NCBI GenBank assembly: GCA_030054295.1
Contig: JASGCE010000009.1
Location: 6,212-30,211, forward strand
Direction: 5' to 3'
Length of the DNA stretch: 24,000 nucleotides
Source: Minisyncoccota bacterium
Lineage (GTDB): Bacteria; Pseudomonadota; Alphaproteobacteria; Elsterales; Elsteraceae
Part shown: in pieces, positions 543-17,889 of the stretch
Position numbering within the stretch: position 1 is the first letter of the stretch
Layout: each line of letters opens with the position of its first letter
Program-made: the position numbers and the translations under genes
The notes under the pieces: model-generated
The model's database searches: none
Seen by the model: only the letters and a program-made list of their open reading frames with translations
Told to the model about the DNA's origin: nothing

Positions 543-2317
543 TGCTGCGCCACCGACAAAAGATTATTCCAAGCCCAGTAAATCACCAATCCGGCCGGAA
601 AACCCGACAGCATAAAGGTAATGACGATTGGCATCCAGGCAAAGATCTTGGCCTGAATCGGATCGGGCGGCTGAGGATTCATCTTCTGCTGCACATACAT
701 GGTCACGCCCATGATAATCGGCCACAGCCCCAGATGCAGCGACGACTGCACCCACAGCGGCAACCAATCGGGCGGAGTCCAGGGCAAAAGTCCAAATAGG
801 GTAAAGACATTGGTCGGGTCAGCCGCCGACAGATCCTGTATCCAACCAAAGAAGGGCGCGTGCCGCATCTCGATGGTCACAAACAGGACCTTGTAAAGGG
901 CAAAGAAGATCGGAATCTGAATCAAGATCGGCAAACAGCCCGAGACCGGATTGACCTTCTCCTTCTTATAGATCCCCATCATCTCCTGATTGAGTTTGAC
1001 CTTATCCTCCTTATACTTCTCTCGAATCTCCATAATCTTGGGGGTCAGTTTCTTCATCTTGTTCTGCATAATATAGGCGCGATTGGCCAGGGGATAGAAT
1101 AGCCCCTTGATAATCACGGTCATGACCAGAATCGCCACACCAAAATTACCCACCAGCTTGACCAGCCAGTCCAAAACGACAAAATAGGGGCGAGTCAAGA
1201 AGAAGAACCAACCCCAATCCACCGCATAGTCAAACCGTTGCACACCAAGGGTCTTTTGATAGGTCTCCAGAGTCTTGACCTCCTTAGCCCCAGCAAAGAT
1301 CCGCGAGGTAGACGATACCGAACCGCCCGCCGCGATAAGCTTGCCCTCGCCCAGCCAATCGATCTGATAGCCTTGCCGATCATTAACCTGACTGCTGCGG
1401 AAGCCAGTCTTGACCCTGCTGGCCTGATCGGGGATCAGGGCGAGTAAAAAATACTTGTCGGTCAAGCCCGTCCAACCACCGCGCGACTCCTGTTCAATCG
1501 CCGGAACCTCGGGCTTGAGATCGCCATAGTTATGCTCGACCAGCTTGTCATCAGCAACCCCGACAAAGCCTTCATGGAGGATAAAAAAGTCGGTGGTGGG
1601 CGGAATATTACTATGTACCGCGAGGTTATAGGGATAGAGGGTGATGGCGGCAGAACCCCTATTCTCGACCAGATCCGTCACCGTCACCATATAGTTCGCA
1701 TCGATCGAGAATTTGCGAATAAACCTCTGGCCGGTTTTGTTTTGCCAGGTCAGTTCGACATCCTGCCCAGGTTTTAAGACCTGTCCATTGCTGCTCCAGA
1801 CCGTCTCGCCATTGGGGAGTTCGATTTTGGTGTCGAGGCTGGTCCAGCCAGTGTCGGTGTAATAGGCTTCAGGCGAATCGCGCGGCGAGAGCAATGTCAC
1901 GGGGGGGCTATTGGCCTCCACCGTCTGGCGATAGGTGGGTAGGGTCACATCATCCAGCCGACCGCCAGTCAGGGAGATTGAACCCTGAATGCGCGGGCTG
2001 TCGATCTTGATTCTTTGGCTCTGGGCCAGGGCCTTGTCACGGGTCAAGATCGGACGAACTGTCGGAGCCACCGCCGCCATTCCCGTGGCAGAACTAACCG
2101 CCGTCGCCGCGGTCGCCAGCGGAGCCACACCCGTGCCAACCGCCGCCGGAGCGGCTGTCGTTGTACCTGTCGGTTTTTGCTGCAACAGGGCAATCGCGGC
2201 CCGGTCGCGGGCCTCCTGCTCCTGCTGCATCTTGGGCATGGCATATAAGAATTGATAGCCGACCACAATCAAGAGCGATAGGATGATGGCAAGGATTAAA
2301 TTACGGTTTTCCGACAT
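512..2317 (-). CDS. yidC: Membrane protein insertase YidC
   Basis: 601-aa ORF with an N-terminal TM helix, a large periplasmic domain and a C-terminal multi-TM insertase core ([67 protein letters not shown]). It sits in the canonical rpmH-rnpA-yidD-yidC order. Confidence 0.95.
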
Positions 2318-2375
2318 GGGTGTTCCTTAAAAGACCTTCGGCTTCACTGCCGAACCAAGAGTAAGCCAAAACAAT

Positions 2376-2642
2376 CTATGGCACCGGATCATAGCCCGAG
2401 CCACCAAAGGGATGACATCTAAAAACGCGCTTCAAACCCATCCAACCGCCGCGCCAAAAACCATAGCTCGTCACGGCCTCCCGCATATATTCCGAACAGG
2501 TGGGATCAAAACGACAGACTCTCCCGCCGCCACTTCCGCTCATCATGTTGATGAGCGGCCCCAGGATCGACCGCCACAGCCAAACCAACAGAGTCACCAA
2601 CCCAATAGCAGGATTCCTTCTGTGCATCAATATAGCCCGCAA
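2376..2642 (-). CDS. yidD: Membrane protein insertion efficiency factor YidD
   Basis: 88-aa ORF with the YidD signature [10 protein letters not shown]...[14 protein letters not shown], located between rnpA and yidC. Confidence 0.9.
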
Positions 2643-2657
2643 AAATGCAAAATGGAG

Positions 2658-3128
2658 TCACTCGTCATTTTCTGTCTCAAGCCTGGTTCGAACCTGCCGT
2701 GGCTGCCCGTCTTGGGAATTGACCGCCGAACAGAGTTTAACAATCCCGCGTTCGAGATCATCTCGGAGATCAGACCAGCGGCGGGTAACAGTCACTTCCC
2801 TGGCAATCAGGACAAAATCCCAATGGGCTGCGGCGCGACCGGCCATAACCTCCGCCACCAGAGCCCGCAGCCGGCGTTTAGCGCGATTGCGCTCAACCGC
2901 GCCACCGACCTTACGGCTGGCCGTATAGCCAATTCGCGGTAAGGGAGAAGGGAGGGGCAAATCCGACTCGAACCCGCGCGGCCGTGCCAGCAAGACAAAT
3001 CCCGCCGCATGGTGTTTATAACGGGTCGAATTCATCCGCAAAAAATCAGCCCGCTTGACCATAGCGGCCAAGGGGACTGAATGATTCTTTGCATCAACGA
3101 AGGGTAAAGGCGAGGGGTTTACTGTCAT
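2658..3128 (-). CDS. rnpA: RNase P protein component RnpA
   Basis: 156-aa ORF containing RIGYTASRKVGGAVERNRAKRRLRALV, the basic RnpA motif, directly downstream of rpmH. A later in-frame start (MVKRADFL..., ATG at 3062) is equally plausible. Confidence 0.9.
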   Translation of the reverse strand: MTVNPSPLPFVDAKNHSVPLAAMVKRADFLRMNSTRYKHHAAGFVLLARPRGFESDLPLPSPLPRIGYTASRKVGGAVERNRAKRRLRALVAEVMAGRAAAHWDFVLIAREVTVTRRWSDLRDDLERGIVKLCSAVNSQDGQPRQVRTRLETENDE

Positions 3129-3198
3129 AGGCTATTGGCACCAACGATCATCAAGATGAAAGGGCCGCATGATCACAACCAGGCCTTAAGCAGCGGCA

Positions 3199-3333
3199 CT
3201 AGGCCGACAGCTTCTTCCGACCCTGGGCGCGACGACGAGCAATCACGCGACGACCACCAACGGTTGCCATCCGTGAACGGAAGCCATGACGCCTTTTGCG
3301 AACGATTTTGCTGGGTTGGAATGTGCGTTTCAC
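3199..3333 (-). CDS. rpmH: 50S ribosomal protein L34
   Basis: Too short for the ORF track. Hand translation of the reverse strand gives GTG start, then [43 protein letters not shown], then TAG (44 aa). An AGGAG lies 8 nt upstream of the GTG. Confidence 0.95.
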
Positions 3334-3364: not shown

Positions 3365-3392
3365 TTGTAGTCGAAGCCGCCACAGCGGTCAA
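3365..3392 (-). promoter_or_regulatory. Candidate sigma-70-type promoter for rpmH-rnpA
   Basis: The reverse strand reads TTGACC (3392-3387), a 16-nt spacer, then CTACAA (3370-3365), about 30 nt upstream of the rpmH GTG. This is a pattern match only. Confidence 0.3.
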
Positions 3393-3466
3393 GGGATAAT
3401 TTTTGGGTGTGGTGGTGCAGGGAATTCTCCAGGGCATTTTATAAATTATCGCAGCAGTATATGAAA

Positions 3467-3645
3467 CCTCCCCTTCTTTAGAAGGGGAGGATAGAAAACC
3501 TTAGCGAAGCCGAAGGCGAGCGTTAGGTTTTCTTGGAGGGGTTGCTATTTCTTTATATTCAACATGTTAACCAACCCCTCCAAGTCTCGCTAGGCAGCAA
3601 GCTGCCAAGCTGCGACTATCCTCCCCTTCCTGGGGAAGGGGAGGT
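3467..3645. repeat. Nested-hairpin repeat, copy A (two inverted units around a 27-nt spacer)
   Basis: The left unit is CCTCCCCTTC-ttta-GAAGGGGAGG, atag, an internal hairpin, then CTTGGAGGGGTTG (3467-3544). The spacer is 3545-3571. The right unit is CAACCCCTCCAAG, an internal GGCAGC-aa-GCTGCC hairpin, ctat, then CCTCCCCTTCC-tgg-GGAAGGGGAGG (3572-3644). Copy A is roughly 90 percent identical by hand alignment to 10988-11169. Confidence 0.85.
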
Positions 3646-3674: not shown

Positions 3675-4985
3675 CTAAACAAAGGGCAAATAATAGTCCC
3701 TTTTGGCGGTTTCATCGGCCAGGGCAGTGACCTCGGCGGCCTCGAATTTTTTTATGGCAATGTGGTTGGTGACCAATTCTGGCCCCAAAGCCTCGCACAG
3801 GGCAGTATCAGCGGCCAGATCATTCAGGGCCTCCAGCAAGGAACCTGCCACCGAATCTCGGCTATCCTGGCTGTTGATGCAATCGCCGGTCTCGGCCAAG
3901 GGCAATTCATAGTCATGAATAAAGCCAAGCCGCGCCGCCTGAAGCAGGGCCGCCGCCGCTGTATAGAGATTACAGCCCGCATCGGCCATCCGATGTTCGA
4001 TCCGCGACTTTGCCCCAGCCTCAGCCGAGAGGCGAACAGTCACGCCGCGATGGTCATAGCCCCAATTCTGCCAATAGCCCGACAGGCTGGCCGGTTGCAA
4101 CCTTTGATAGGAATTCATCGTCGGGGCCAGAATCCCGGCCAGGGCGCGGTGGTGCCGAACCATCCCCGCCGTCGCCCCACGCATTATTTTGGACATCTTA
4201 GCCCCCGCGAGATCGTCGCGGTGGGCATCGCCCAGGGCATTTTTACCCTCCTGATCGGCAAGGCTGATGTTATAATGTACGCCACTCCCTCCCAGGCTCA
4301 GGATCGGCTTGGGCATAAAGCTCAAGACCAGGCCACATTGATGGGCCACTTCCCGCGCCATTATTTTAAACAGAAAAATCTCGTCGACGGCCTTGACCGC
4401 ATCGTCAAAGACCAGAGCAAACTCGACCTGCCCGGGATCAAATTCGGTCTGAAAGGATTCGATCTTAAAGCCTGCCTCCGTTGCCCTATGCCACAGCTCA
4501 TCCATAAAACCATTGGGATCATTGATGGGGCCAGTACTATAGACAAAGGGGGCACCCATGGCGGCGGGCTGATAGGCGCCAGTCTGGCTGTTGCGTTCAA
4601 AAATATAGGCCTCGAGTTCAATCCCCAGTTTGGGGTTAAGCCCAAGTTTTTGCCACTCGGCCACCGCCCTTTTTAAGGCCCCGCGCCCGCACAGGGCCAG
4701 GGGCTGGCCATAGGCATCAAACTGGTCGCAGATGACGACATCGGTATCCTCCTCCCACCCTGTCCTAATATCTGCGCTACTGTACCGCGCCTCCATATCG
4801 GGTAGGCCAATGGTCAAGCCACCCCCCGGGGCATCGGTGAGCGTCCGACTATAGGTCAGGACATAGATTCCCAGACAGAAGCGCGAGGTACCGCCCGCGA
4901 CATTTGGTTTAAGCGGCGTATATTTGCCCCTCGGTAAGCCCAAATGGTCACTAAAGAACAGGCGCAATCTTTTGTTTTGGGTCAT
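3675..4985 (-). CDS. Glutamine synthetase family protein (gamma-glutamyl-amine/amide synthetase-like)
   Basis: 436-aa ORF with GS catalytic-domain motifs: GSGVHYNISL (compare GSGMHxHxS), NSYQRL (compare NSYKRL) and RIEHRMADAGCNLY (compare RxExRxxDxxxNPY). A strong AAGGAGGAG lies upstream of the ATG. Size and context suggest a PuuA/GmaS/IpuC-type enzyme rather than housekeeping GlnA; that part is inference. Confidence 0.8.
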   Translation of the reverse strand: MTQNKRLRLFFSDHLGLPRGKYTPLKPNVAGGTSRFCLGIYVLTYSRTLTDAPGGGLTIGLPDMEARYSSADIRTGWEEDTDVVICDQFDAYGQPLALCGRGALKRAVAEWQKLGLNPKLGIELEAYIFERNSQTGAYQPAAMGAPFVYSTGPINDPNGFMDELWHRATEAGFKIESFQTEFDPGQVEFALVFDDAVKAVDEIFLFKIMAREVAHQCGLVLSFMPKPILSLGGSGVHYNISLADQEGKNALGDAHRDDLAGAKMSKIMRGATAGMVRHHRALAGILAPTMNSYQRLQPASLSGYWQNWGYDHRGVTVRLSAEAGAKSRIEHRMADAGCNLYTAAAALLQAARLGFIHDYELPLAETGDCINSQDSRDSVAGSLLEALNDLAADTALCEALGPELVTNHIAIKKFEAAEVTALADETAKRDYYLPFV

Positions 4986-5042
4986 ATTGGCTCTCCTCCT
5001 TGATTTGGTTGGTTTGGTGAAATTATCGCTTTATCCTTTAGT

Positions 5043-5277
5043 AAGGTCTGAAAAACTCCAAATTTATAGTGCAACCCCTCCAAGCAAACCTAAATCTTGA
5101 CTTCGTCTTCGCTAAGGTTTGCTATCCTCCCCTTCTAAAGAAGGGGAGGTGTAAGCTATTGTAATCATTGCTTCTTTATCCCCCCTTCTTCAGAAGGGGG
5201 GAATAGTCGACCCGTCAGCGAATGCTGACATTCGTCAGCGGGTGAAGTTTACTTCTTAGTGAGACTAAGGGGGGTTG
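5043..5277. repeat. Nested-hairpin repeat, copy B (leader motif plus unit 1 forward plus unit 2 reverse)
   Basis: The leader AAGGTCTGAAAAA is at 5043-5055. Unit 1 (CAACCCCTCCAAG...GAAGGGGAGG) is at 5072-5149. Unit 2 in reverse orientation (TCCCCCCTTC-ttca-GAAGGGGGGA...CTTAGTGAGACTAAGGGGGGTTG) is at 5179-5277. The reverse complement of 5072-5277 matches 10860-11065 with about 9 mismatches in 206 nt by hand alignment. Confidence 0.9.
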
Positions 5278-6602
5278 TCTGACTGTATTTGTAAAGCGAC
5301 TTTATCAGACCCTCCTTTAGTAATATCCATCGGCAATGACTTGATCCCGCCAATAAAATTAGACCTGAGATAGCGATGGGGTTCGGTCAGGTCCATCGCG
5401 CCAACTCGGGCGATCCATTCTTGCAGAAACACCTTGACCTCCAGCCGCGCCAACCACATGCCGAGGCAGACATGGACTCCGCCCTGACCAAAGGCAATGT
5501 GCGGATTGGGATTTCGGCTGAGGTTAATCTCGTGCGGATCTTCAAATACCGTCTCGTCGCGGTTGCCCGAGACAAACCACAGAATCACCTTATCGCCTTT
5601 TTTGATGGTCTTACCGTGAAGCACCATGTCGCGCTTGGCCGTGCGTCGAAAATGCATGGTGGGAGAGGCCCAGCGAATCATCTCGTCGGCTGCCAGGGCC
5701 CAGACCTCGCTGTCATTACCGCCGTTACGCGCCGCCTCCTGTAACTGTTTTACCAGGGCCGGTCGGCTGGCCAGAGCAAAGAGAGTCGCCGCAATCGAAT
5801 AGCGCGTCGTGTCATTGCCCGCCGCAACCAGCAGACAAAAGAAATTCCTAAATTCCTGAACACTGATCTGATTGCCATTTTCGTCGGGCTGCAGGACCAG
5901 GCTTAGGACTCCCTCGGTGTCGCCAATCCGTTGCTTCTCGGCCATCAGTTTTTGGGCATAGTCAAACAGTTCAATCCCGGCCGGGGAACGGAAGGGCATC
6001 AGGCGATAGTCATCGGTATCGGTTTGATCCAGCACATGTTTGGTGAATTCAGGGTCGGTATTGGCAATCAGTTGATCGCCCTTCTCGACCAGCCATTCAA
6101 AGTCTTCATGCTTGGCCCCCAATATTTGCCCCAGAACCCGCATCGGAATTTGCCGCGCGACCTGTTTGGTGGCATCGATCTTTTGTTCCTTGAGGGCCTT
6201 TTGAATCACATCGATACAGATCTCGCGAATCTGGTTCTCATATTCCAAGACCACCGGTCGAGAGAAGGCCTTGCTGACAATCATCCTCAGGCGGGAATGT
6301 TCGGGCGGGTCTGTTTCTTGGAAGGTGCGCCGCGCCAGATATTCCTCCTCGGTCTGGTCTTCCATGCGAATGCCATGGGCTGAACTATAGTCCTGATATT
6401 CGCGGTTAATGGCCAGAATATCGCTATGGCGGGTAATTGACCAAAAGCCTTTTCCCTTGCCATCAAGGCCTGGCATCTCCTGCCAATAGACCGGGTCGTC
6501 GCGGCGCAGTTTGGCAAAGAAGTTAAAGGGCACGCCATGGATAAAACTATCATGGGATGCGAGATCAATCTCACCCTGATCGCTTGGTGTAAAACCTGTC
6601 AT
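5265..6602 (-). CDS. Cytochrome P450 monooxygenase
   Basis: 445-aa ORF with the I-helix AAGNDTTR, the ExxR motif (EMIRW) and the heme-thiolate loop FGQGGVHVCLG. No ferredoxin or ferredoxin reductase gene is present in the window. Confidence 0.9.
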   Translation of the reverse strand: MTGFTPSDQGEIDLASHDSFIHGVPFNFFAKLRRDDPVYWQEMPGLDGKGKGFWSITRHSDILAINREYQDYSSAHGIRMEDQTEEEYLARRTFQETDPPEHSRLRMIVSKAFSRPVVLEYENQIREICIDVIQKALKEQKIDATKQVARQIPMRVLGQILGAKHEDFEWLVEKGDQLIANTDPEFTKHVLDQTDTDDYRLMPFRSPAGIELFDYAQKLMAEKQRIGDTEGVLSLVLQPDENGNQISVQEFRNFFCLLVAAGNDTTRYSIAATLFALASRPALVKQLQEAARNGGNDSEVWALAADEMIRWASPTMHFRRTAKRDMVLHGKTIKKGDKVILWFVSGNRDETVFEDPHEINLSRNPNPHIAFGQGGVHVCLGMWLARLEVKVFLQEWIARVGAMDLTEPHRYLRSNFIGGIKSLPMDITKGGSDKVALQIQSDNPP

Positions 6603-6633
6603 AACCTCTCCTCCTCAATCTCTGATCATAGGT

Positions 6634-7449
6634 TTATGGCTCGATAATCTCCAGACTCTTGCCGCCATTCCAGACCACGCCAATCTGCCGATAGAAGGCA
6701 CCGATCATTTCGCGCGGCATCAGGCGGGTTAATTCTTCGGTCGGGGAGTCAAACAGCGAGAACTGTTCAACCTCCCCCTGCCAGACCGGGCCGCCTTCAA
6801 ATTTGGCGGCGGTCGATTCGATAAGTTCAGCAAAGACATCGCCAGAATCGGGCTGGGTGGAGCTGGTCTGGATGGCCGGGTAAAAACGGTGATGGGCCAT
6901 GGGGTGACCATTGACAAAGCCGTTCTTATCGGTGGTTTTGGTCAAGCGAATCACCGCCTCCGACAGGCGACGGTCTCCCGCTGCCAATGTCGCGCCAAAT
7001 CGCGCTCCAGCCTCCAACCGCGGCGCCGGGGCAAAGGGGTGAGGGCGAGTCATATGAATCGAACCCATTTTCTTGGGATAGCCCTGGTGAATCCCTCGCA
7101 ACATCGCAAAATCCTTATCGACCCAAATATAGACACAGCGCGAATAGGTCGCCCCCTGATAGTCACAGCGCACCACGACAAAGGCTTCTTTATATTGCGA
7201 GCGAATCGGGTCGAGCATCTCGTCATGGCTGGCACCACAGGATTGCCAATCGGCCCAGATCAAGGCCACCGCCCCCGGGTCATCCTTGGCCAGTTTTAAC
7301 GGCGGCGGCAGCAGTTCGGCAACCAGACTGGGATCGGTGCGATATTCAATGGTCAAGAGATCGCCAGAATAGTGCCAGGGCGGAGCGGGCAGAAGCGAAG
7401 ACTCACCGCTCCCCGACCTTGGATAGAAAAAACCTTTGTTACTGGTCAT
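6634..7449 (-). CDS. Acetoacetate decarboxylase (ADC) family protein
   Basis: 271-aa ORF. The N-terminal LLPAPPWHYSGDLLTIEYRTDPSLVAELLPPPL pattern and the size match my recollection of the ADC/MppR-like family. This was not verified by search. Confidence 0.65.
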   Translation of the reverse strand: MTSNKGFFYPRSGSGESSLLPAPPWHYSGDLLTIEYRTDPSLVAELLPPPLKLAKDDPGAVALIWADWQSCGASHDEMLDPIRSQYKEAFVVVRCDYQGATYSRCVYIWVDKDFAMLRGIHQGYPKKMGSIHMTRPHPFAPAPRLEAGARFGATLAAGDRRLSEAVIRLTKTTDKNGFVNGHPMAHHRFYPAIQTSSTQPDSGDVFAELIESTAAKFEGGPVWQGEVEQFSLFDSPTEELTRLMPREMIGAFYRQIGVVWNGGKSLEIIEP

Positions 7450-7461
7450 GATTATTTTCCT

Positions 7462-8310
7462 TTAACCCCGGATCGGTGCGCGAATGCCGCGAAACTCCCA
7501 GTCGCCGCCGAGGGCGGTCGAGACCACCTCCTCGGACTCAGTCGGTTGCGCCCCGACATCATCGCGAATGGCAGTTGGCCCCTCGACAATGAGGTTGCTG
7601 AGGCGACCCAGTCCCTCGACCTCGACCTCGACCAGATCGCCGGGCTTAACCGGCCGAGAAAAGGCTGGGGTACCCGACAGCAGGACATCCCCCACCTCGA
7701 GCGTGATGGTACGGGCAATATCCGCGACCAGATAGTGCATATCCCAGGTCATTTCGTCGGTATTGCCATCCTGTTTAATCTCGCCATTGACGAAGGTGCG
7801 GAGGTATTTATGCCTAAAGTCCCAACCCTCGACCAGACCCGGGCCGATGGGGCAAAGACTATCGCTACCCTTGACCCGCAGCATCGAACCCGCATCGGTA
7901 TCGCGGAAATCATGTAGCCCATAGTCATTGGCAATACTGTAGCCGCGAATATAGTCACCCGCTTGACTGGGGGAAATATTGCGGCAGGTGCGACCAATCA
8001 CAATGGCCACCTCCCCCTCGAAATTGAGCCATTTACAGCCCTTCGGCCGCACCACCGCGCCGCCATGACTGTTCAAGGCCGAGGTCGGTTTATGGAAGTA
8101 GGTCGGGGTCTTGGATAGTTTGATCTGGAACTCCTTGACCCGCGAGACATGGTTGAGATGGACACAGATGATTTTACTCGGCACCACCGGCGGCAGGTGA
8201 TGGGCGTCGCTAATCTTGATGCGGCGACCATCACCCGCGACCAAGTCTTCGCCATCGCGCACCACCTCGGCGACTATGCCGTTCAATAGGATTCTCCGAA
8301 TTTCGCGCAT
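7462..8310 (-). CDS. Fumarylacetoacetate hydrolase (FAH) family protein (HpaG / 2-oxo-ene-dioate hydratase or decarboxylase-like)
   Basis: 282-aa ORF with FAH-fold patterns: KIICVHLNH, FEGEVAIVIGR, SIANDYGLHDFR and GDVLLSGTPA. Confidence 0.85.
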   Translation of the reverse strand: MREIRRILLNGIVAEVVRDGEDLVAGDGRRIKISDAHHLPPVVPSKIICVHLNHVSRVKEFQIKLSKTPTYFHKPTSALNSHGGAVVRPKGCKWLNFEGEVAIVIGRTCRNISPSQAGDYIRGYSIANDYGLHDFRDTDAGSMLRVKGSDSLCPIGPGLVEGWDFRHKYLRTFVNGEIKQDGNTDEMTWDMHYLVADIARTITLEVGDVLLSGTPAFSRPVKPGDLVEVEVEGLGRLSNLIVEGPTAIRDDVGAQPTESEEVVSTALGGDWEFRGIRAPIRG

Positions 8311-8335
8311 GGTTTTTACCCCCCCTTTGCTATGG

Positions 8336-9202
8336 TTATTGTCGCTTAAAGTTAATATGAACCTGTCCGGTGCCGATTGAATTTTCGTAAAGACTATAGA
8401 GTTCGCCGCGGTCGCGCCAATTGGCCTCTCCCATCGCCGCGGCCATCATGAGATAGGGGCCAAAGGAGGCCTCGGGTTTAAAGGTGAGGAATTCGGGCAT
8501 GGTGGCAATGACTCGACCATGGTCTCCCGCCTTGAGCCATTCAATCCGCTCGAGATCCGCTGCGGCATGTTCGGGGCTGAAGATATGTTTAACCGCCGCC
8601 GATTCATGCTGGCGCAGCAGTTTGAGCGACCAGAACCTATGACTCATGGCCCCCGAAGCAATCAGCAGGATTTTGCGCGGCTTTTTAAAATCGGCAATCG
8701 CATCGCGCAGAGCCCGACCCGCGCGTAAAAAATCATCGGTCTCTGCCGTCTGCGGGCAGCTTATCGAGACCCAGGCCTCACTGCCATATTGCAAATATTC
8801 GGCGATATTGACCGTCGCATAATGGATCGGCAAATAGGGATCATCGATGGGGGTAATCCAGGTGCCATGGGCCGCGGCATGACCGGCCCAGGCCTGTGAG
8901 AATTCTGGATCGCCGGGCAGGTCATAGGGAATCTGACTCATGCCGCGTGGCAATTCTTCGGAGGTGAACTTGCCACTCCGCCTTTTATGGCTGGTGACGA
9001 CAAACTCGACGGTGGTAAACCAGTGGGAGTCAAAAACAATCACCAGATCGGGGCGGAGTTTTTCCATCACCTCGCTTTTAAAGCGATTCAGACCCTCGAC
9101 GAGACTAAAGTCCTCCCCCTCGTTCAACTCCCGTCGGATCGATTCGGGGAGCATGATGGTGGGAACATGGGCCAATAAAGCATTACCAACAACCTCTGCC
9201 AT
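8336..9202 (-). CDS. Class III (LigB-type) extradiol ring-cleavage dioxygenase
   Basis: The track ORF (8336-9355) overlaps the ALDH 3' end. The internal ATG at 9202 has a GAGGA Shine-Dalgarno sequence and gives 288 aa starting MAEVVGNALLAHVPTIM. The motifs VIVFDSHWF and ASGAMSHRF are typical of LigB/HpaD/MhpB-like enzymes. Confidence 0.8.
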   Translation of the reverse strand: MAEVVGNALLAHVPTIMLPESIRRELNEGEDFSLVEGLNRFKSEVMEKLRPDLVIVFDSHWFTTVEFVVTSHKRRSGKFTSEELPRGMSQIPYDLPGDPEFSQAWAGHAAAHGTWITPIDDPYLPIHYATVNIAEYLQYGSEAWVSISCPQTAETDDFLRAGRALRDAIADFKKPRKILLIASGAMSHRFWSLKLLRQHESAAVKHIFSPEHAAADLERIEWLKAGDHGRVIATMPEFLTFKPEASFGPYLMMAAAMGEANWRDRGELYSLYENSIGTGQVHINFKRQ

Positions 9203-9227
9203 TATAATTTCCTCGGTTCCATTAAAA

Positions 9228-10679
9228 CTAAGCCAGGTCGGGAGCAAAGACGCGGCATTTAAGATCGGCATAGAAGTCAAAAGACCAGTGCCCCCCTTCT
9301 CGTCCAATCCCCGATAGTCCATTGCCGCCAAAGGGTTGCCGCAGATCGCGGACAAAAAAGCAATTGTTCCAAATAATTCCAGCCGGGATGGCCTGGCTGA
9401 CCCTTTCAGCGCGGGACCTGTCGCTGGTGATAATCACCGCCGCCAGCCCGTAATCGGTGTCATTGGCCAGGGCAATGGCCTCAGCTTCGCTGCTGAAGCT
9501 GCTCAGGGTCAATACTGGCCCAAAGACTTCGGACTGCCAGATTTCGCTGCTGGCGGGCGGGTCGAGGAACAGGGTCGGGCTAAAATACAATCCGCCCAAT
9601 TCTTGATTGGGATTACCGCCGAGGGGGCAGACGAGTCCAGACTCCTTGGCCCGCTCGACAAAACCCTTGACCCGATCAAAATGAACCCGACTGATCTGGG
9701 GGCCGAGGTCAATGGCCTCGTCACGAGGGTCACCCTGGCGTAGAGTCCTCGCCCGCTTGACAAAGTTTTCGAGAAACTCGGCGCGGATGGATTGCTCGAC
9801 CAGAATTCGCGTTCCGGCCAAACAGACCTGGCCAGCATTGTCATATTGTCCGACCGCCAGCTCCACCGCGCGATCCAGATCAGCATCGGCAAAGACAATA
9901 AAGGGCGATTTTCCCCCCAATTCAAATGACAATGGCACCAGATTTTGCCCAGCCGCGACGGCAATCGAACGGGCGGTAGCGACCGAACCGGTAAAGGCCA
10001 TCCGCCGCAGCCCGCGATGGGCCGCCAATGCTGCGCCAGCCTCGCTACCTATGCCCTGCACGACATTAAAGACTCCCGCTGGCACATTGGCCTCGGCAAA
10101 AACATCGGCCAGCAGCGAAGCGGTCAAGGGTGCCCATTCGGGGGGCTTAAAGACCACCGTGCAACCCGCCGCCAAGGCCGGGGCAATCCGCCAAGAGCCC
10201 AACATCAGCGGGGCATTCCACGGGGTGATGATTCCCGCCACGCCACTGCCTTCCCACGAAACCTTATTAACATGGTCGCGGGTGATAAAATCATCGTGAT
10301 GGAGCCGCATCAATTCTTCGGCAAAATAGCGGAAATTATGGGCCACCCGCGGCATGACCCCGCGGCGATGGGATCGCAACAGAGAGCCATTGTCGGCGGT
10401 CTCGACCTGGGCCAGAGTCTCGATCCGCCCCTCGATCAGTTCGGCGACCCTTAGCAAATGGCCGGCCCTTTTTTCTGCCGTCAGGTTTTTCCACTGCGGA
10501 AAGGCCTGCTGTGCCGCGGCAACCGCGCGGTCAACCATTGCGGCATCGGCAGCGGCAACCTCGCCCAAGGGAGATTCATCGATGGGGGAAATATCCAAAA
10601 ACGACCTAGGGGAATCGACCCGCTCGCCGCCAATAAAATGACGATGATCAACCCGGTGGTTTTCGATTGAGATCGACAT
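9228..10679 (-). CDS. NAD(P)-dependent aldehyde dehydrogenase (hydroxymuconic-semialdehyde dehydrogenase-like)
   Basis: 483-aa ORF with the catalytic Glu motif ELGGKSP and the catalytic Cys motif GQVCLAGTR. It is the first gene of the five-gene operon. Confidence 0.9.
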   Translation of the reverse strand: MSISIENHRVDHRHFIGGERVDSPRSFLDISPIDESPLGEVAAADAAMVDRAVAAAQQAFPQWKNLTAEKRAGHLLRVAELIEGRIETLAQVETADNGSLLRSHRRGVMPRVAHNFRYFAEELMRLHHDDFITRDHVNKVSWEGSGVAGIITPWNAPLMLGSWRIAPALAAGCTVVFKPPEWAPLTASLLADVFAEANVPAGVFNVVQGIGSEAGAALAAHRGLRRMAFTGSVATARSIAVAAGQNLVPLSFELGGKSPFIVFADADLDRAVELAVGQYDNAGQVCLAGTRILVEQSIRAEFLENFVKRARTLRQGDPRDEAIDLGPQISRVHFDRVKGFVERAKESGLVCPLGGNPNQELGGLYFSPTLFLDPPASSEIWQSEVFGPVLTLSSFSSEAEAIALANDTDYGLAAVIITSDRSRAERVSQAIPAGIIWNNCFFVRDLRQPFGGNGLSGIGREGGHWSFDFYADLKCRVFAPDLA

Positions 10680-10810
10680 TTATCCCCCCCTTTATGGCAT
10701 TTGTTTCTTTGTTTTGAACTCAGTCCCGATCGCTTTTAAAAATCGTTCGACATCGTATAGTTCCATCGTAAAATGCCTATGTCAAGGAATAATTTTTTGG
10801 ATTTATGCAT

Positions 10811-11169
10811 TGTTCACTTGAGAAAGGTCTGAAAAAGTGATTTTTTAATGACAATCGGGCAACCCCCCTTAGTCTCACTAAGCAGCAAGCTGCATCCGCT
10901 GACGCATGTCAGCATTCGCTGACGGGTCGACTATTCCCCCCTTCTGAAGAAGGGGGGATAAAGTAGCAATGATTACAATAGCTTACACCTCCCCTTCTTT
11001 AGAAGGGGAGGATAGCAAACCTTAGCGAAGACGAAGTCGAGCTTTAGGTTTGCTTGGAGGGGTTGGTTTTTGTTTATAATCAACAGAGTAACCAACCCCT
11101 CCAAGTCTCGCTAGGCAGCAAGCTGCCAAGCTGCGACTATCCTCCCCTTCCTAAAGCAGGAAGGGGAGG
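10811..11169. repeat. Nested-hairpin repeat, copy C (most complete: leader plus unit 2 plus unit 1a reverse plus unit 1b)
   Basis: The leader TGTTCACTTGAGAAAGGTCTGAAAAA is at 10811-10836. Unit 2 forward is at 10860-10959, unit 1a reverse at 10988-11065, a 27-nt spacer follows, and unit 1b forward is at 11093-11169. The left part is the inverted copy of B and the right part is a direct copy of A. Confidence 0.9.
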
Positions 11170-11206
11170 TGAATTGATTTTATAACAGTTTGTCATCAGT
11201 CTGAAA

Positions 11207-12706
11207 TCAATCGATCTGGTTTTTACCGAGCTCACGATAGGCACTCGGATTGCGTTTTGCCAAGATCGAGCCAATGATAAAGCCAAAAACCGCCGCAGCC
11301 GGCACCGATAAAGGCAAGAGATAGGCCATAACCACCGTATAGGGTTTAGCAGGATCCGCCCCGATCAAAATGTCGAAGTTGCGCGAGACCAGAACCGCAA
11401 TCATTGTCATCAATACCCCAGCAAAAACTGGCATGACCGACATGGTGAAGAACTCCTTGCCCTGATCCGACATTCTTAAACTATAGGAAGATATGGCGAA
11501 GGAGACCAATGCCATAATGCTGATAATCGCCAAGGTTCCCGTATTGGTCATCCAGGTAAACATCCCCAGCACCGGGTCAATACCCGACAGAGCAAAAAGC
11601 GCGACAAAGAGGATTGAGATAATGGTTTGCATTATCGAACTCTTATGGGGGCTTTGGTGAATCTCGTGGGTGTGGCCAAGATGGCTGGGCAGCAAACCCT
11701 CTCTCCCCAAAACATAAAAATAGCGCGAGGTCGCATTGTGAAAAGCCAGCAAGGCCGCAAAGAGACTCGAGACAAACAGAAGCTGGATCGGCAGGGTCAA
11801 CCAACTACCGGCATATTTGTCGGTCAGACTATAGATAAAGAGCGTCGGGTCGGGAACGCCATCCGGAGTCTTGAGTCCGGCGATGGTCTCAACGAGTCGT
11901 TCGGCCCCCGCACCCTCGACCATTAACCAGGTGGTGACGGTGTAAAAGATTCCAATCGCCAGCACCGCAGCATAGGTCGCGCGGGGAACGGTTTTTTTCG
12001 GCTCCCTGGCCTCCTCCGAATAGATGGTCGTCGATTCAAAACCCATGAAGGAGGCAAAACAGAGCAGGAACCCCAAAATCGGCGTCCCGCTCAACAGGGC
12101 ATGAAGGCTGAAGCTGGTCATACCAATGCCGTTACCACTGGCTCCACCCTTACCCACAATCAACAGGTCGAGGATAAAGACGGCCAGATATTCCAAAATC
12201 ACCAACAGGGTCAAGATCTTCATCGATAGTTCGATCTTACGATAGCCCATAATACTGATGAGAAGCACACAAAAACCAGCATAGAGATACCAGGGCAAAT
12301 AGAGGCCGAATAGTGCCCCGATGGTTCCCTCAGTCACCGCACCAAAGAGTCCATAGAGTCCAATCTGCATCGTAATATAGGCCAGCATCGCCGTATAGGC
12401 CGTGGCGGCTCCAATCCGACCGTTAAAGCCCTGAGAAGCAAAGGCATAAAACGATCCAGCATTGTTAATATATCGGGCTATTCGCGTATAGCCGACCGAA
12501 AAAACCAGCAGCAATAGCGTAATCAGCAAAAAGGCAAAGGGAACCCCGGCCCCATTACCTAGCAACATGCCAACCGGCGTGCCACCAGCAATCCCGGTCA
12601 AGGGAGCCGCCGCCGAGATCACAAAAAAAGTAATCGCCGCTACCCCAAGCGAACCTTGGCGCAGACGATTTTTAGATTTTTGCGGGTTTGATTCTGATTC
12701 AGTCAT
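11207..12706 (-). CDS. APC-superfamily amino acid/amine permease
   Basis: 499-aa, highly hydrophobic ORF with about 12 TM segments judged by eye. An AGGAGG Shine-Dalgarno sequence lies upstream. The composition and length are typical of APC permeases. Confidence 0.8.
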   Translation of the reverse strand: MTESESNPQKSKNRLRQGSLGVAAITFFVISAAAPLTGIAGGTPVGMLLGNGAGVPFAFLLITLLLLVFSVGYTRIARYINNAGSFYAFASQGFNGRIGAATAYTAMLAYITMQIGLYGLFGAVTEGTIGALFGLYLPWYLYAGFCVLLISIMGYRKIELSMKILTLLVILEYLAVFILDLLIVGKGGASGNGIGMTSFSLHALLSGTPILGFLLCFASFMGFESTTIYSEEAREPKKTVPRATYAAVLAIGIFYTVTTWLMVEGAGAERLVETIAGLKTPDGVPDPTLFIYSLTDKYAGSWLTLPIQLLFVSSLFAALLAFHNATSRYFYVLGREGLLPSHLGHTHEIHQSPHKSSIMQTIISILFVALFALSGIDPVLGMFTWMTNTGTLAIISIMALVSFAISSYSLRMSDQGKEFFTMSVMPVFAGVLMTMIAVLVSRNFDILIGADPAKPYTVVMAYLLPLSVPAAAVFGFIIGSILAKRNPSAYRELGKNQID

Positions 12707-12998
12707 GGTTTCCTCCTGTAAGTGAAGATTTTTATGAGAATGGCTTATCTAACCATAGTTCTGGTGCGAAGATCAGCAACCCCTGCCTTGCCATAACACC
12801 TTGATAGGAGGGATTATAGATGGATTATTGATAGTTTAAGGATCGACAGTACTGTTCGTTCTCGAATGATCCACCAATTAATTTAATTTTACAAGATTTT
12901 TTTTGCAATCTCTGAAGCCTCAGCCTATTTTAGCCAATTGATGAGACAGACGCTTGTATAGTCTATAGTAAACCATCTTGACCCGGTTGGTAGTCACC

Positions 12999-13487
12999 AT
13001 GTCGATTAAACCCACTGCCGAGATTCTCGGCGAACAGAAGGTTGCCTCCCTTCCCATCAACCGCGAGGCCATGGCCCTGGTCTCCAACCTGCACCGCGCC
13101 TCGAGTCTGATTCGCCAGCATTTTGAAGCCCTGGTTTTAAGCACCAATGGACTCCATTGGTCGGCCTTTGTGACTCTCTGGTGTTTGTGGATTTTTGGCG
13201 AATTGCCGACCCACCGACTCTCGCAAGAGGTCGGGATTGCCAAAAGCAGCCTATCGTCGATTTTGAATGACCTCGAGAAACGCGGGTTTTTAGTCCGCCG
13301 CACCCCACCCGAAGAAAGGCGGCAATGCCTAGTGCAACTGACCGCCAAGGGCGAGCAGCTATTGTCCGATATATTCCCCCGCTTTAACGAGGAGGAGGCA
13401 GCAATTCTGGTGGGTTTGACCCCCTCCGCCATGGCCGTGACGACCAATCTGCTGAGGGATTTAATTGCCAAACTGGATGAGGAATGA
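12999..13487 (+). CDS. MarR-family transcriptional regulator
   Basis: 162 aa from the ATG at 12999 (the track uses a TTG at 12978). The winged-helix region is LSQEVGIAKSSLSSILNDLEKRGFLVRRTPPEERRQCLVQLTAKGEQLL. The gene is divergent from the permease. Confidence 0.8.
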   Translation: MSIKPTAEILGEQKVASLPINREAMALVSNLHRASSLIRQHFEALVLSTNGLHWSAFVTLWCLWIFGELPTHRLSQEVGIAKSSLSSILNDLEKRGFLVRRTPPEERRQCLVQLTAKGEQLLSDIFPRFNEEEAAILVGLTPSAMAVTTNLLRDLIAKLDEE

Positions 13488-13552
13488 GGGGAGGAGGGAA
13501 TGTTAAATCTTATGAAAACCCCTCATCGCGTTACGAAGTAAGGCGATCCAGC

Positions 13553-13650
13553 GGGGGAGTCGAACGAAGTGAGACGGGGGCGTCATCCCCCACTTTTATT
13601 CTCCGTTAACCTCAGATTTCAAAATTATGTTCAGATTTCTCAAGTGAACA
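13553..13650. repeat. Degenerate, internally deleted copy D of the repeat family (inverted relative to copy C)
   Basis: 13636-13650 is an exact 15-nt reverse-complement match to TGTTCACTTGAGAAA at 10811-10825, followed by TCTGAA. 13553-13580 (GGGGGAGTCGAACGAAGTGAGACGGGGG) resembles the GGGGGGAATAGTCGAC...CTTAGTGAGACTAAGGGGGG ends of unit 2, with the internal hairpins missing. Confidence 0.45.
13576..13600 (+). terminator. Possible weak intrinsic terminator after marR
   Basis: GGGGG-cgtcat-CCCCC followed by ACTTTTATT, about 90 nt after the marR stop. The stem is short and lies inside repeat copy D. Confidence 0.3.
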
Positions 13651-13658
13651 GAGTATAA

Positions 13659-14417
13659 CTACCCCAGCAGATCACAGCCGAGAAACCGCCGACCCTGAGC
13701 CATCGCCGCCGCCATCACCGAAAAACTTCCCGCCGCCGGATCAATCACCAGATCCCCCGGATTAGTCACCGCCTCGATCAACTGCTTCTGCAATTCAACC
13801 GGCTTAGAATGACTGTGGCTGCGATCGGTAATCTTTTCATCCCACACATCCGGAATATTATGCAAACACCATACCCCCTTAGCCCGCACCGGAGACTTCT
13901 GAAAAATCACCAAATATTCCGCCGTCCGCCGCGTCCGATAACCCATGCCAATCCGCTTCTTATTCCAAGTCACCATATCGACCAGATTGAGTTCGGTGCC
14001 AGCCATCAAAGACTCCAACCCACTGCAAACAATAAACTTATCAACCCACAGCATGAGATGCCCCTGCGGCGTTAGTACCCGCTCAATCTCGCTGAGGAAC
14101 TCGGCAATAATATCCTCCGGCATCTGCGGCAAACTGGCGCGATGCTTCTGCCGCGCCCCCTCATTACCATAGGCCTGCTTGTCGAGCACCGTCCGATATT
14201 GCGGATCAAAAAACACCAGCGGCACAGTCTTGTCCTCGACCCGCGCCAACAGCTCCAAACCATTCATCTGCTGCCGCTGATTGATCGCCAAACCCTCAAT
14301 CCCCTTAAAAACCGGCGCCTTGGCCGTGCGAAGCTTGGAATAGACCGACTTGATATTATCAGAAGTAACCGTCTTATTGGGTGCCGCCGCCGCTGCTATA
14401 ATTTGAGGCATCTTCAT
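13659..14417 (-). CDS. Site-specific DNA methyltransferase, N6-adenine/N4-cytosine class (beta-type motif order)
   Basis: 252-aa ORF. Motif IV, VFFDPQY (a DPPY variant), comes first. The AdoMet-binding region HSKPVELQKQLIEAVTNPGDLVIDPAAGSFS lies near the C-terminus. G+C resembles the host genes. Confidence 0.85.
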   Translation of the reverse strand: MKMPQIIAAAAAPNKTVTSDNIKSVYSKLRTAKAPVFKGIEGLAINQRQQMNGLELLARVEDKTVPLVFFDPQYRTVLDKQAYGNEGARQKHRASLPQMPEDIIAEFLSEIERVLTPQGHLMLWVDKFIVCSGLESLMAGTELNLVDMVTWNKKRIGMGYRTRRTAEYLVIFQKSPVRAKGVWCLHNIPDVWDEKITDRSHSHSKPVELQKQLIEAVTNPGDLVIDPAAGSFSVMAAAMAQGRRFLGCDLLG

Positions 14418-14424
14418 ATCCTGC

Positions 14425-14497
14425 TGTAACTGTGACCAAGTATCTGTAAAAAATTATTACAGAATAACCAGTTACAAGCAATAGTTAATGTTAACTA
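14425..14497. promoter_or_regulatory. Cluster of nested and perfect palindromes between the two methyltransferase genes
   Basis: TGTAACTG (14425-14432) pairs with CAGTTACA (14469-14476). This encloses CTGTAA (14444-14449) paired with TTACAG (14457-14462). TAGTTAA-tg-TTAACTA follows at 14482-14497. Function is unknown; candidates are a terminator for the C5-MTase gene and/or an operator-promoter for the downstream MTase. Confidence 0.3.
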
Positions 14498-14512
14498 CCG
14501 AGCATTATCTTA

Positions 14513-15637
14513 TTAGCCTTTGATTATATTGGATAAAATTGAATCAGCCAAGGCTTGAGATAACAGAGGCGGCACCGCATTACCAATTTGTAAATTGCGA
14601 TCTCCCCGCGAACCATAGAATTGATAGCTGTCAGGAAAGGATTGCAGCCTCGCCCCCTCCCGCGTCGTCAAGGGACGCGCCACCCTGGGGTGAATACAGC
14701 GGGAGGATGATGGAGTGCTAAGGTTACGGGTGATGGTCGGTGAAGGCCGATCCCACCACAGCCGCGAATAGGTGTTTTTAAAACCCGAACTCGGGCGAAG
14801 TTCAGGCGGCAGGTCTTCAGGCGAGCCTCCATCGGGCAAGGCCTCCATCAAACGAATGAGCTGCGGATTGTTCTTTGGCGCATTGTGATCCGATAGTTTA
14901 GTCGGGGCCGATTCGCGCATTTTTATTTGATATGGGTTTTGGGCTGCGGTTCGATAATGGTCAGACTCCTCGCCCGAAGCAATCAGCGGCAAATCGCCAA
15001 TGGCATCGGATAATGTCAAATAGGAAAGTTTCTTAGTGTCAAATAGGGATTCTGATTTTTGCGACTCGCCATGGGTAGAATCGGGATAGGTAAATTGGGT
15101 ATTTAATTTTGAACCGACGATTATAAGTCTTTCTCGGATCTGCGGGACACCGTAATCGGCGGCATTAAGGATTCTATACTGTACCTTGTAACCAATCGAT
15201 TCAAATAATTCAATAATATTTGTCAGAAGTTTTCCTTGATCCATCGACTCCAAACCCTTTACATTCTCGAAAATAAAGAGTTTAGGGTTAATCTCGGTAA
15301 GTAATCGAAAATACTGGTTAAATAATCGAGCCCTTGGATCATCTGAATTTCGCTTGCCAACGGTAGAAAAGGCCTGACAGGGCGGCCCGCCGATAATGAC
15401 GTCAATCTCACCCGATTTGATGCCTAAATCTTGGGACAGATCCTCAGCCGAAAACTCGGCAATATCCCTTTGATAAATCGGAACGGACGGGTGATTGAGA
15501 CTATAGGCCTTGGCCATGGCGGGCAAAATTTCATTCGCCGCGACGATTTTAAAATTCTGATTCTGACTGAAACCATAACTCAGCCCACCAACACCAGCAA
15601 AAAGATCGAGGAGTTTGATTTTTGAATCGGTTGGCAT
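14513..15637 (-). CDS. DNA (cytosine-5) methyltransferase
   Basis: 374-aa ORF with the full m5C-MTase motif set: I LDLFAGVGGLSYGF, IV GGPPCQAFS, VI FIFENVKGL, VIII QIRERLIIVG, IX-like RPLTTREGARLQSFPD and X GNAVPPLL. The gene is AT-rich relative to its neighbours. Confidence 0.95.
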   Translation of the reverse strand: MPTDSKIKLLDLFAGVGGLSYGFSQNQNFKIVAANEILPAMAKAYSLNHPSVPIYQRDIAEFSAEDLSQDLGIKSGEIDVIIGGPPCQAFSTVGKRNSDDPRARLFNQYFRLLTEINPKLFIFENVKGLESMDQGKLLTNIIELFESIGYKVQYRILNAADYGVPQIRERLIIVGSKLNTQFTYPDSTHGESQKSESLFDTKKLSYLTLSDAIGDLPLIASGEESDHYRTAAQNPYQIKMRESAPTKLSDHNAPKNNPQLIRLMEALPDGGSPEDLPPELRPSSGFKNTYSRLWWDRPSPTITRNLSTPSSSRCIHPRVARPLTTREGARLQSFPDSYQFYGSRGDRNLQIGNAVPPLLSQALADSILSNIIKG

Positions 15638-15640
15638 AAT

Positions 15641-16423: not shown

Positions 16424-16438
16424 TAAACCAACCCCACC

Positions 16439-17314: not shown

Positions 17315-17405
17315 TTTAATTCTCGCACTGCGGTTAAACAAATTTTGATTTAACAAGATTTGATGGTAATAATCAAGCCAGTCGCGCAGTAATAAAGGAA
17401 ATAAG

Positions 17406-17855: not shown

Positions 17856-17889
17856 AGCGTTACATCAATCTTAATGAAAGGTAACTATA

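Follow-up and report, generated by a model that had tools for sequence, protein, structure and literature searches.

What does a bacterium degrade with a ligase resembling glutamine synthetase (GS), a cytochrome P450 and a set of ring-cleavage enzymes encoded side by side? The question is raised by a 24,000-nucleotide stretch of DNA, here called the window, which is part of a 30.8-kb contig (JASGCE010000009.1) in a metagenome-assembled genome (MAG; 2.7 Mb in 355 contigs, 95.5% complete) assigned to the Elsteraceae. Positions 3675-13487 of the window hold seven minus-strand genes and one divergent regulator. A preliminary description of the sequence had read them as a catabolic pathway for an aromatic amine or phenolic compound, an overall interpretation that our comparisons with protein models, solved structures and other genomes support. 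On balance, the cluster probably encodes the catabolism of an aromatic alkylamine derived from tyrosine or 3,4-dihydroxyphenylalanine (DOPA), most simply tyramine. The gene combination is not due to chance: it recurs across phyla.

An eight-gene cluster

Pfam and NCBIfam models, used for all family calls on window proteins, bear out the positions and families that the preliminary description had given for the eight genes:

3675..4985, minus strand: putative GS-like ATP-dependent gamma-glutamyl-amine ligase (PF00120)
5265..6602, minus strand: class I cytochrome P450 of a CYP124/CYP125-like clade (PF00067)
6634..7449, minus strand: predicted Schiff-base enzyme of the acetoacetate decarboxylase (ADC) superfamily (PF06314, 165 bits)
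7462..8310, minus strand: decarboxylase/isomerase of the FAH fold, like the C-terminal part of HpaG/HpcE (PF01557)
8336..9202, minus strand: LigB-type (class III) extradiol dioxygenase, a single subunit of 288 aa (PF02900)
9228..10679, minus strand: HpaE-like ring-fission semialdehyde dehydrogenase of the aldehyde dehydrogenase (ALDH) family (PF00171)
11207..12706, minus strand: amine/amino acid permease of the APC superfamily, likely an importer (PF13520, PF00324)
12978..13487, plus strand: MarR-family regulator (PF01047), likely start ATG 12999

Read along the minus strand the order is permease, ALDH, LigB, FAH, ADC-like, P450 and GS-like, with the MarR gene divergent from that of the permease. 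None of the eight genes has a frameshift, and each matches its orthologues in length. The LigB open reading frame (ORF) had been listed as 8336-9355, and its start was placed at ATG 9202 by alignment with the Dongia orthologue; comparison of N-termini likewise makes ATG 12999, rather than 12978, the likely start of MarR. Intergenic gaps of 12-31 nt had been attributed to the whole operon. This holds for four of the six same-strand junctions (ALDH-LigB and LigB-FAH, 25 nt each; FAH-ADC, 12 nt; ADC-P450, 31 nt), but not for P450-GS (279 nt) or permease-ALDH (527 nt).

Conservation across phyla

A scan for orthologues of the ADC-like protein, limited to one genome per species, detected them (65-74% identical) in at least 592 species genomes; the protein has thousands of relatives, the best 120 of which are 66-74% identical. 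Neighborhoods were compared at the 80 best loci and four others (about 84), ten reference loci being searched against all 9,478 ORFs. The resulting counts are lower bounds, as contig ends cut some loci:

ALDH, 80 of about 84 loci
LigB, about 76
FAH, 74
P450, 74
GS-like ligase, 72
C26 hydrolase, about 65
APC permease, 64
MarR, about 59
ferredoxin reductase, 54

Conservation of the neighborhood had been named in the preliminary description as a check on its reading, and the combination is found in hundreds of Actinomycetota and Pseudomonadota genomes. In Alphaproteobacteria (Dongia, Hypericibacter and Rhodospirillaceae MAGs) the layout is permease / MarR-ALDH-LigB-FAH-ADC-P450-GS-Fer2-FdR, the 2Fe-2S ferredoxin (Fer2) and ferredoxin reductase (FdR) genes directly following that of the ligase in Dongia and other members of the class. 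In Actinobacteria (many Streptomyces, Mycobacterium, Nocardioides, Rhodococcus rhodnii and Actinosynnema) P450 and GS are divergent from ferredoxin (Fdx)-FdR-ADC-ALDH-LigB-FAH-permease-ALDH2-C26, and MarR is convergent; the Streptomyces clusters encode a 3Fe-4S-type ferredoxin, FdR, the second ALDH (ALDH2) and the C26 hydrolase. P450 redox partners and a gamma-glutamyl hydrolase had been noted as absent from the window, which is correct. Since both are found inside orthologous clusters, these parts belong to the system, and the window lacks them.

The association of ADC-like genes with the cluster extends only down to roughly 45% identity, because a more distant homologue (39% identical) lies in an unrelated context. 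A rearranged version of the cluster, with an ADC-like protein 53% identical to that of the window, occupies 9210-19672 of the locus from Novosphingobium sp. EMRT-2 plasmid pABRDHK22 (L102); it includes two ALDHs, a cytochrome b561-like gene and a 2Fe-2S ferredoxin, with no C26 hydrolase, and its LigB gene is labeled 'catechol 1,2-dioxygenase' by RefSeq, a misannotation.

The cluster is patchy within the family of its host, where it occurs in one of 16 genomes. In a quick, midpoint-rooted tree of ADC-like proteins, the window sequence pairs with that of a 'Candidatus Symbiobacter' MAG (SH-aLRT 90), which appears to be its nearest sampled relative with the cluster. The pair falls inside a proteobacterial clade of eight (SH-aLRT 99), the other six sequences being alphaproteobacterial or unclassified proteobacterial. 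Acquisition by horizontal transfer is likely, although the tree settles neither the position of this clade relative to Actinobacteria nor the direction of transfer.

Ring-cleavage enzymes allied to the Hpa pathway

The dioxygenase, ALDH and FAH protein had been likened to the core of homoprotocatechuate (Hpa) degradation, and models from that pathway are indeed their best named curated matches, all below equivalog cut-offs. LigB scores 105 bits against HpaD_Fe (TIGR02298), its top NCBIfam match (cut-off 316), and its closest structure is 3,4-dihydroxyphenylacetate (homoprotocatechuate) 2,3-dioxygenase (8IQ8), with which the His/His/His/Glu metal and catalytic positions align. The top NCBIfam match of the ALDH is HpaE (505 bits, cut-off 638), against only 333 bits for PuuC, and it is 57-72% identical to its counterparts in orthologous clusters. 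The FAH protein, 71-85% identical across phyla, reaches 200 bits with the HpaG C-terminal model (cut-off 276), second to a generic FAH-family model (223.5 bits), and 20 bits with the DmpE hydratase model; its best structural match is E. coli HpcE (1GTT), and by these scores it is HpaG-like rather than hydratase-like. The comparison of the regulator with HpaR also stands, HpaR being its best NCBIfam match (47 bits; cut-off 121), and with the MarR proteins of alphaproteobacterial clusters it shares 54-58% identity. Because all scores lie below equivalog cut-offs, LigB, ALDH and FAH are, by this measure, a sister group of the Hpa enzymes and not Hpa enzymes proper. Homology searches did not place the three in non-aromatic pathways, the outcome that would have spoken against the preliminary description. 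Its remark that the usual hydroxylase and hydratase-aldolase pair are missing is likewise accurate: 3675-13487 contains no ORF for HpaBC, HpaH, HpaI or HpaF.

The solved relatives of LigB introduce a different substrate class. Its second-best matches among them are subunits of 2-aminophenol 1,6-dioxygenase (E 4e-9 to 2e-7), and the cluster might accordingly serve an arylamine whose nitrogen is attached to the ring, such as an aniline or aminophenol. This compound would be glutamylated as in the Atd, Tdn and Npa systems and ortho-hydroxylated by the P450; after loss of the glutamyl group, LigB would cleave it in the manner of AmnB. GS-like ligases of the 'GoaS' class do initiate the degradation of aniline and 1-naphthylamine (PMC11335346), and an extra GATase-type protein that stands beside the P450 in some clusters recalls AtdA2. 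HpaD, however, is closer to LigB (1e-13) than is AmnB; LigB is a single subunit and not an alpha/beta pair; neither a Rieske aniline dioxygenase nor a 2-aminomuconate deaminase accompanies it (the window has no Rieske or GATase ORF); and a tyrosine-decarboxylase-like gene and a PuuC/PuuD-like pair found in related clusters, described below, would be left without a role. We consider this the least probable of the readings weighed here, and very improbable in itself.

A candidate hydratase-aldolase

That an ADC-family protein replaces the hydratase-aldolase pair had been suggested at the outset, and the suggestion fits both the lack of HpaH and HpaI and the catalytic residues of the protein. Its K126 aligns with K156 of MppR and K122 of Sbi00515, and its E88 with E84 of Sbi00515 (the catalytic Lys and Glu), and both positions are invariant in 17 orthologues. 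Its matches in the PDB are MppR (4JM3, 3e-46) and Sbi00515 (4ZBO, 1e-38); against the MppR model TIGR04460 it scores 179 bits (cut-off 380), and the cluster has no MppP/MppQ-type neighbors (pyridoxal-phosphate (PLP) oxidase, aminotransferase). Sbi00515 is reported by Mueller et al. 2015 to be a pyruvate aldolase-dehydratase, and we know of no published physiological role for enzymes of its type. Its chemistry run in reverse would give hydration and retro-aldol cleavage of a 2-oxo-3-enoate. Because the Schiff-base lysine of MppR and Sbi00515 is kept, the ADC-like protein is likely to combine hydratase and aldolase in one protein. In MppR the active-site lysine acts on a gamma-hydroxy-alpha-keto acid (PMC10367076). 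The idea of an aldolase with the ADC fold also has a precedent by analogy in S. solfataricus, in which two ADC-like genes beside catechol meta-cleavage genes are induced 77-82-fold on phenol and are proposed by the authors to encode the missing aldolase of the meta pathway (PMC7820114).

Ligase, P450 and interchangeable front ends

The GS-like protein falls far below the cut-offs of the GlnA, GlnII, type III GS and PuuA equivalog models (173 bits for PuuA, cut-off 650). Its translation shows what we take to be the usual GS motifs, and it is predicted to be a ligase of the GS fold and not a true glutamine synthetase. Amine catabolism by a ligase of this kind is established for isopropylamine (PMC1713258). 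In the P450 the Cys379 heme-thiolate loop, the AGNDT motif of the I helix and the EMIR motif are intact. The best PDB matches are CYP125MRCA (317 bits), CYP125 and CYP124, and the actinobacterial counterpart, about 37% identical, belongs to the same CYP125/CYP124-like clade; the context of the window P450 is amine and aromatic catabolism, not lipid or sterol catabolism as for CYP124 and CYP125.

What precedes the ring-cleavage core varies among clusters. That of Streptomyces lunaelactis plasmid pSLUN1 has no P450 and instead encodes a PLP decarboxylase of group II; among curated models, two for tyrosine decarboxylase match it best, with scores far under their cut-offs. Such a decarboxylase is found in four P450-less loci (pSLUN1, L056, L085 and L097) and in two that also have the P450, and across the 84 loci loss of the P450 goes with presence of the decarboxylase. 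Another cluster, in which the ADC-like protein is 45% identical, has a Rieske oxygenase of the VanA type with a reductase instead of the P450, and about 12 mycobacterial-type loci carry a VanA-type oxygenase and VanB-like reductase alongside the P450 (for example L031, 5094-7164; L040, 6377-8517; L105, 13119-15331). These pairs hint at methoxylated substrates such as 3-methoxytyramine or vanillylamine. On the simplest reading, each front end makes a glutamylated catechol amine from a different precursor: by hydroxylation it would do so from a phenol amine, by O-demethylation from a methoxy amine, and by decarboxylation from L-DOPA. The interchangeability of these genes points to a tyrosine- or DOPA-derived amine as the substrate class.

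The P450-less decarboxylase clusters also bear on the fate of the glutamyl group, here called the tag. They still encode the ligase, and their only nitrogen-freeing enzyme is the terminal C26 hydrolase. Since nothing in them removes the nitrogen earlier, the ring would have to be cleaved while tagged; the intermediates therefore probably remain glutamylated until the ring has been opened.

A proposed pathway

The reactions and substrate proposed here are read from gene content, protein families, catalytic residues and conserved neighborhoods. The APC permease would import the amine, and the GS-like ligase, at the expense of ATP, would link the amine nitrogen to glutamate through the gamma-carboxyl group of the latter. 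With the glutamyl group as a polar handle, the P450 would hydroxylate the tagged phenol to a catechol (gamma-glutamyl-dopamine), the ring of which would be cut next to the diol by LigB. The HpaE-like dehydrogenase would oxidize the ring-fission semialdehyde, and the HpaG-like FAH enzyme would isomerize and decarboxylate the product. The ADC-like enzyme, forming a Schiff base through K126, would hydrate the resulting 2-oxo-3-enoate and split it into pyruvate and a gamma-glutamyl amino-aldehyde. From a two-carbon side chain the latter would be gamma-glutamyl-4-aminobutanal, which a PuuC-like dehydrogenase and a PuuD-like hydrolase would convert to gamma-aminobutyric acid (GABA) and glutamate; both are encoded in the actinobacterial clusters, and in the present genome these functions would need unlinked genes. 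MarR would repress the cluster until substrate is present. A possible benefit of the scheme is that an acylated amine would not cyclize onto the ring-fission aldehyde or a quinone.

The final steps of this proposal draw on the accessory genes of actinobacterial clusters. The Hpa pathway releases succinate semialdehyde from a carboxymethyl side chain, and by carbon counting an arylethylamine would analogously yield gamma-glutamyl-4-aminobutanal. Of the accessory proteins, the second ALDH matches PuuC best among NCBIfam models (557 bits, against 477 for phenylacetaldehyde dehydrogenase models), and for the C26 protein PuuD is the sole NCBIfam match. Their genes overlap by 4 nt and are translationally coupled in most of the clusters. 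Were a gamma-glutamyl amino-aldehyde released by aldol cleavage, just such a set would be expected: an HpaE-like core ALDH together with a PuuC-like accessory ALDH and a PuuD-like C26 protein.

The same genes must be weighed against a scheme in which the nitrogen leaves early. In that scheme the P450 would hydroxylate the carbon next to the amide nitrogen, and the carbinolamide would fall apart into glutamine and an arylacetaldehyde, so that ligase and P450 together would substitute for an amine oxidase and homoprotocatechuate would proceed by an Hpa-like route to pyruvate and succinate semialdehyde. No hydrolase is needed here, and the proteobacterial clusters, that of the window included, have neither a gamma-glutamyl hydrolase nor a second ALDH within 10 kb. 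Members of the CYP124/125-like clade hydroxylate aliphatic carbons; the score of the accessory ALDH with phenylacetaldehyde dehydrogenase models is in keeping with an arylacetaldehyde; and the best named matches of the core enzymes are Hpa enzymes, which act on the free acid. On the other hand, the P450-less decarboxylase clusters keep ligase, core, PuuC-like ALDH and C26 protein, and in these the nitrogen could not leave before ring cleavage. The translational coupling of the PuuC-like and PuuD-like genes also speaks against early loss of nitrogen, and in the proteobacterial variant a single ALDH would have to perform two steps. We judge such an amine-oxidase substitute unlikely.

Several observations weigh against the tyramine pathway itself. 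Every curated equivalog model scores below its cut-off, such that no activity can be assigned by homology alone, and our literature search met with no experimental datum on any gene of the cluster family. Members of the P450 clade are known to hydroxylate terminal methyl groups of lipids and sterols rather than rings, and no HpaF-type isomerase gene is present. The ligase (about 34%) and P450 (about 37%) are much less similar to their actinobacterial counterparts than are the core proteins (50-82%); given this divergence, the amine used or the oxidation performed by the proteobacterial front end may differ. The ligase is 50-55% identical to those of alphaproteobacterial clusters and some 32-34% to the actinobacterial one. 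Neither the window nor the MAG encodes a dedicated ferredoxin and ferredoxin reductase, and no PuuC/PuuD-like pair is linked to the cluster in the window. Candidates for these parts elsewhere in the MAG comprised only lipoamide-dehydrogenase-like reductases (35% identity over part of the query), a sole Fer2 gene in an iron-sulfur cluster (ISC) context, adjoining an IscA-like gene, and two unlinked C26 peptidase genes in housekeeping contexts; no link of any of them to the cluster was shown, and they were set aside. Separately, a DarT-family ssDNA thymidine ADP-ribosyltransferase (the DarTG toxin) is encoded beside the IscA-like and Fer2 genes (L012, G000:C252, 264-947, minus strand).

With these points in mind, the tyramine proposal can be stated in its fullest form only tentatively, at slightly less than even chances: a complete meta-cleavage pathway that operates on N-gamma-glutamyl-protected intermediates from uptake to aldol split, with a one-protein hydratase-aldolase of the ADC fold releasing pyruvate and gamma-glutamyl-4-aminobutanal, and with interchangeable front ends (P450, VanA-type Rieske oxygenase, DOPA/tyrosine decarboxylase) feeding tyramine, methoxylated amines or L-DOPA into a shared core. 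A search of the literature, with poor coverage of subscription journals, returned no account of the cluster, nor any of bacteria that degrade gamma-glutamyl-tyramine or gamma-glutamyl-dopamine.

A dispersed repeat within the cluster

The two long gaps in the operon, and a third site downstream of the ligase, are occupied by copies of a repeat:

3455..3645, unstranded: third repeat copy, between ligase and rpmH (family D1; 177 nt, 90% identical to 10976-11152)
5072..5321, unstranded: repeat copy, inverted relative to 10816-11065, filling the P450-GS gap (pair I1; 250 nt, 90% complementary)
10816..11165, unstranded: repeat copy or copies filling the permease-ALDH gap (pair I1; families D1, D2 and D4)

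The unit measures about 140-250 nt and contains GC-rich hairpins (CCTCCCCTTC-loop-GAAGGGGAGG type). We had entertained the inverted copies as a mobile bracket specific to the operon and rejected this, since the repeat occurs at 40 or more places in the MAG. Because these copies are spread over many contigs, the element is a genome-wide repeat of MITE (miniature inverted-repeat transposable element) or REP (repetitive extragenic palindromic) type and not a feature of the operon; and because it often lies at contig ends, it is probably a main cause of the fragmented assembly. Short matches beside two of the copies (3388-3407 with 10781-10800; 5036-5055 with 10817-10836) suggest that the unit may be longer or may favor promoter regions. 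On the minus strand at 3490-3467, downstream of the ligase, is a terminator-like hairpin.

The 3455-3645 copy of the repeat occupies the position of the Fdx and FdR genes in relatives. In the closest relative (L107, P450 87% identical) ligase and P450 are 28 nt apart, the 279-nt gap in the window being owed to the repeat. The last 19 or so codons of the P450 lie in a repeat copy, beyond the region that aligns with solved P450s; orthologues are 420 aa, and since L107, which has no repeat at this junction, has a different C-terminal tail, the tail in the window is by this comparison repeat-derived.

Such changes invite the view that the copy in this MAG is reduced or decaying and no longer functional, or else that the ligase-P450 pair and the ring-cleavage genes are unrelated modules which happen to adjoin. 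Three repeat copies interrupt the operon, one of them replacing the end of the P450; the ferredoxin and its reductase are gone from a nearly complete genome; and the cluster is rare in its family. Yet all eight reading frames are intact and of full length with their catalytic residues kept, the repeat-derived tail is outside the P450 fold, and class I P450s often accept non-cognate ferredoxins. The two modules, moreover, are linked across phyla, also in rearranged orders. Either form of this explanation seems to us highly unlikely.

Genomic setting

On the left the cluster is flanked by mnmE-yidC-yidD-rnpA-rpmH, and on the right by two DNA methyltransferases and a low-GC gene with no family match. 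Next to this conserved block (window 3-3333) it takes the place immediately upstream of rpmH that usually belongs to dnaA; there is no dnaA within the window. The right-hand genes, at 13659-16423, form a likely restriction-modification block:

13659-14417: N6/N4 DNA methyltransferase
14513-15637: C5 cytosine methyltransferase
15641-16423: 260-aa protein with no family match, a candidate endonuclease, in a stretch of 40% GC

Farther on, a 311-aa ORF with no Pfam match and low GC (about 42%) at 17890-18825 overlaps the start of a metallo-beta-lactamase-fold gene at 18776-19849. Neither the divergent region nor the sequence upstream of the ALDH gene yielded an inverted repeat that might serve as a MarR operator palindrome, and a scan for promoters and terminators gave weak consensus matches only.

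Implications

Tyramine, dopamine and L-DOPA are common products of plants, animals and fermentation, and the bacterial routes known to us take off the amine first, by an oxidase or transaminase. If the proposed pathway is correct, glutamate protection with ring cleavage in the tagged state would be a new logic for the catabolism of aromatic amines. It would account for hundreds of unannotated genes, in Streptomyces, mycobacteria, Nocardioides and Alphaproteobacteria, that go by the labels 'acetoacetate decarboxylase family' and 'catechol 1,2-dioxygenase', and would provide a natural substrate for ADC-like aldolase-dehydratases. For the Sbi00515/MppR-like branch this would be the first physiological role other than in antibiotic biosynthesis. 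Two of the enzymes stand out as possible biocatalysts: a P450 that converts tagged phenols to catechols, and a hydratase-aldolase contained in one protein. The window, a minimal proteobacterial form of eight genes, shows which of the genes can be dispensed with or provided in trans. New in its analysis are the contrast between a conserved core and a divergent front end, the association of P450 loss with the decarboxylase, and the recognition of the bracketing inverted repeats as a dispersed genomic repeat.

Comparison with known systems

Four catabolic systems and one biosynthetic branch share parts with the cluster. The Puu pathway of E. coli (PuuP, PuuA, PuuB, PuuC and PuuD; putrescine to GABA by way of gamma-glutamyl compounds) has, like the cluster, an APC importer and a GS-like ligase for tagging the amine, and the PuuC-like and PuuD-like proteins of orthologous actinobacterial clusters would handle the same gamma-glutamyl-4-aminobutanal. 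The window cluster, however, lacks a PuuB oxidase and PuuC- and PuuD-like genes, and its aldehyde would come from aldol cleavage of a ring-fission product. In the Ipu pathway (Pseudomonas sp. KIE171 and Paenarthrobacter aurescens TC1) a P450 oxidizes glutamylated isopropylamine, and the Pip pathway for piperidine in Pseudomonas sp. KU43P is also of the ligase and P450 type. Both share with the window a GS-like ligase adjoining a class I P450, and with its relatives a ferredoxin and reductase in the cluster; unlike the window, they act on aliphatic substrates and have no ring-cleavage enzymes. In the AtdA1-A5, TdnQTA1A2B and NpaA1-A5 systems an aromatic amine is likewise first glutamylated by a GS-like enzyme, but there the tag is lost as a Rieske dioxygenase makes the catechol, whereas the window has a P450 and no Rieske enzyme and the tag is probably kept. 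MppR and Sbi00515 have the fold and the catalytic Lys and Glu of the ADC-like protein, and the reported Sbi00515 reaction is the reverse of the one proposed here; the ADC-like protein is about 40% identical or less to them, and its context is catabolic, not that of enduracididine biosynthesis.

The nearest parallel to the core is the Hpa/hpc pathway of E. coli (HpaD, E, F, G, H, I and HpaR), with which the cluster shares a LigB dioxygenase, a semialdehyde dehydrogenase, an FAH-fold decarboxylase/isomerase and a MarR regulator, all four below equivalog cut-offs. It is without the HpaBC flavin hydroxylase, HpaF, HpaH and HpaI; an ADC-fold enzyme would replace HpaH and HpaI, and ligase and P450 would replace HpaBC. 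The intermediates of the window pathway, finally, probably bear a glutamylated aminoethyl side chain, where those of Hpa bear a carboxymethyl group.

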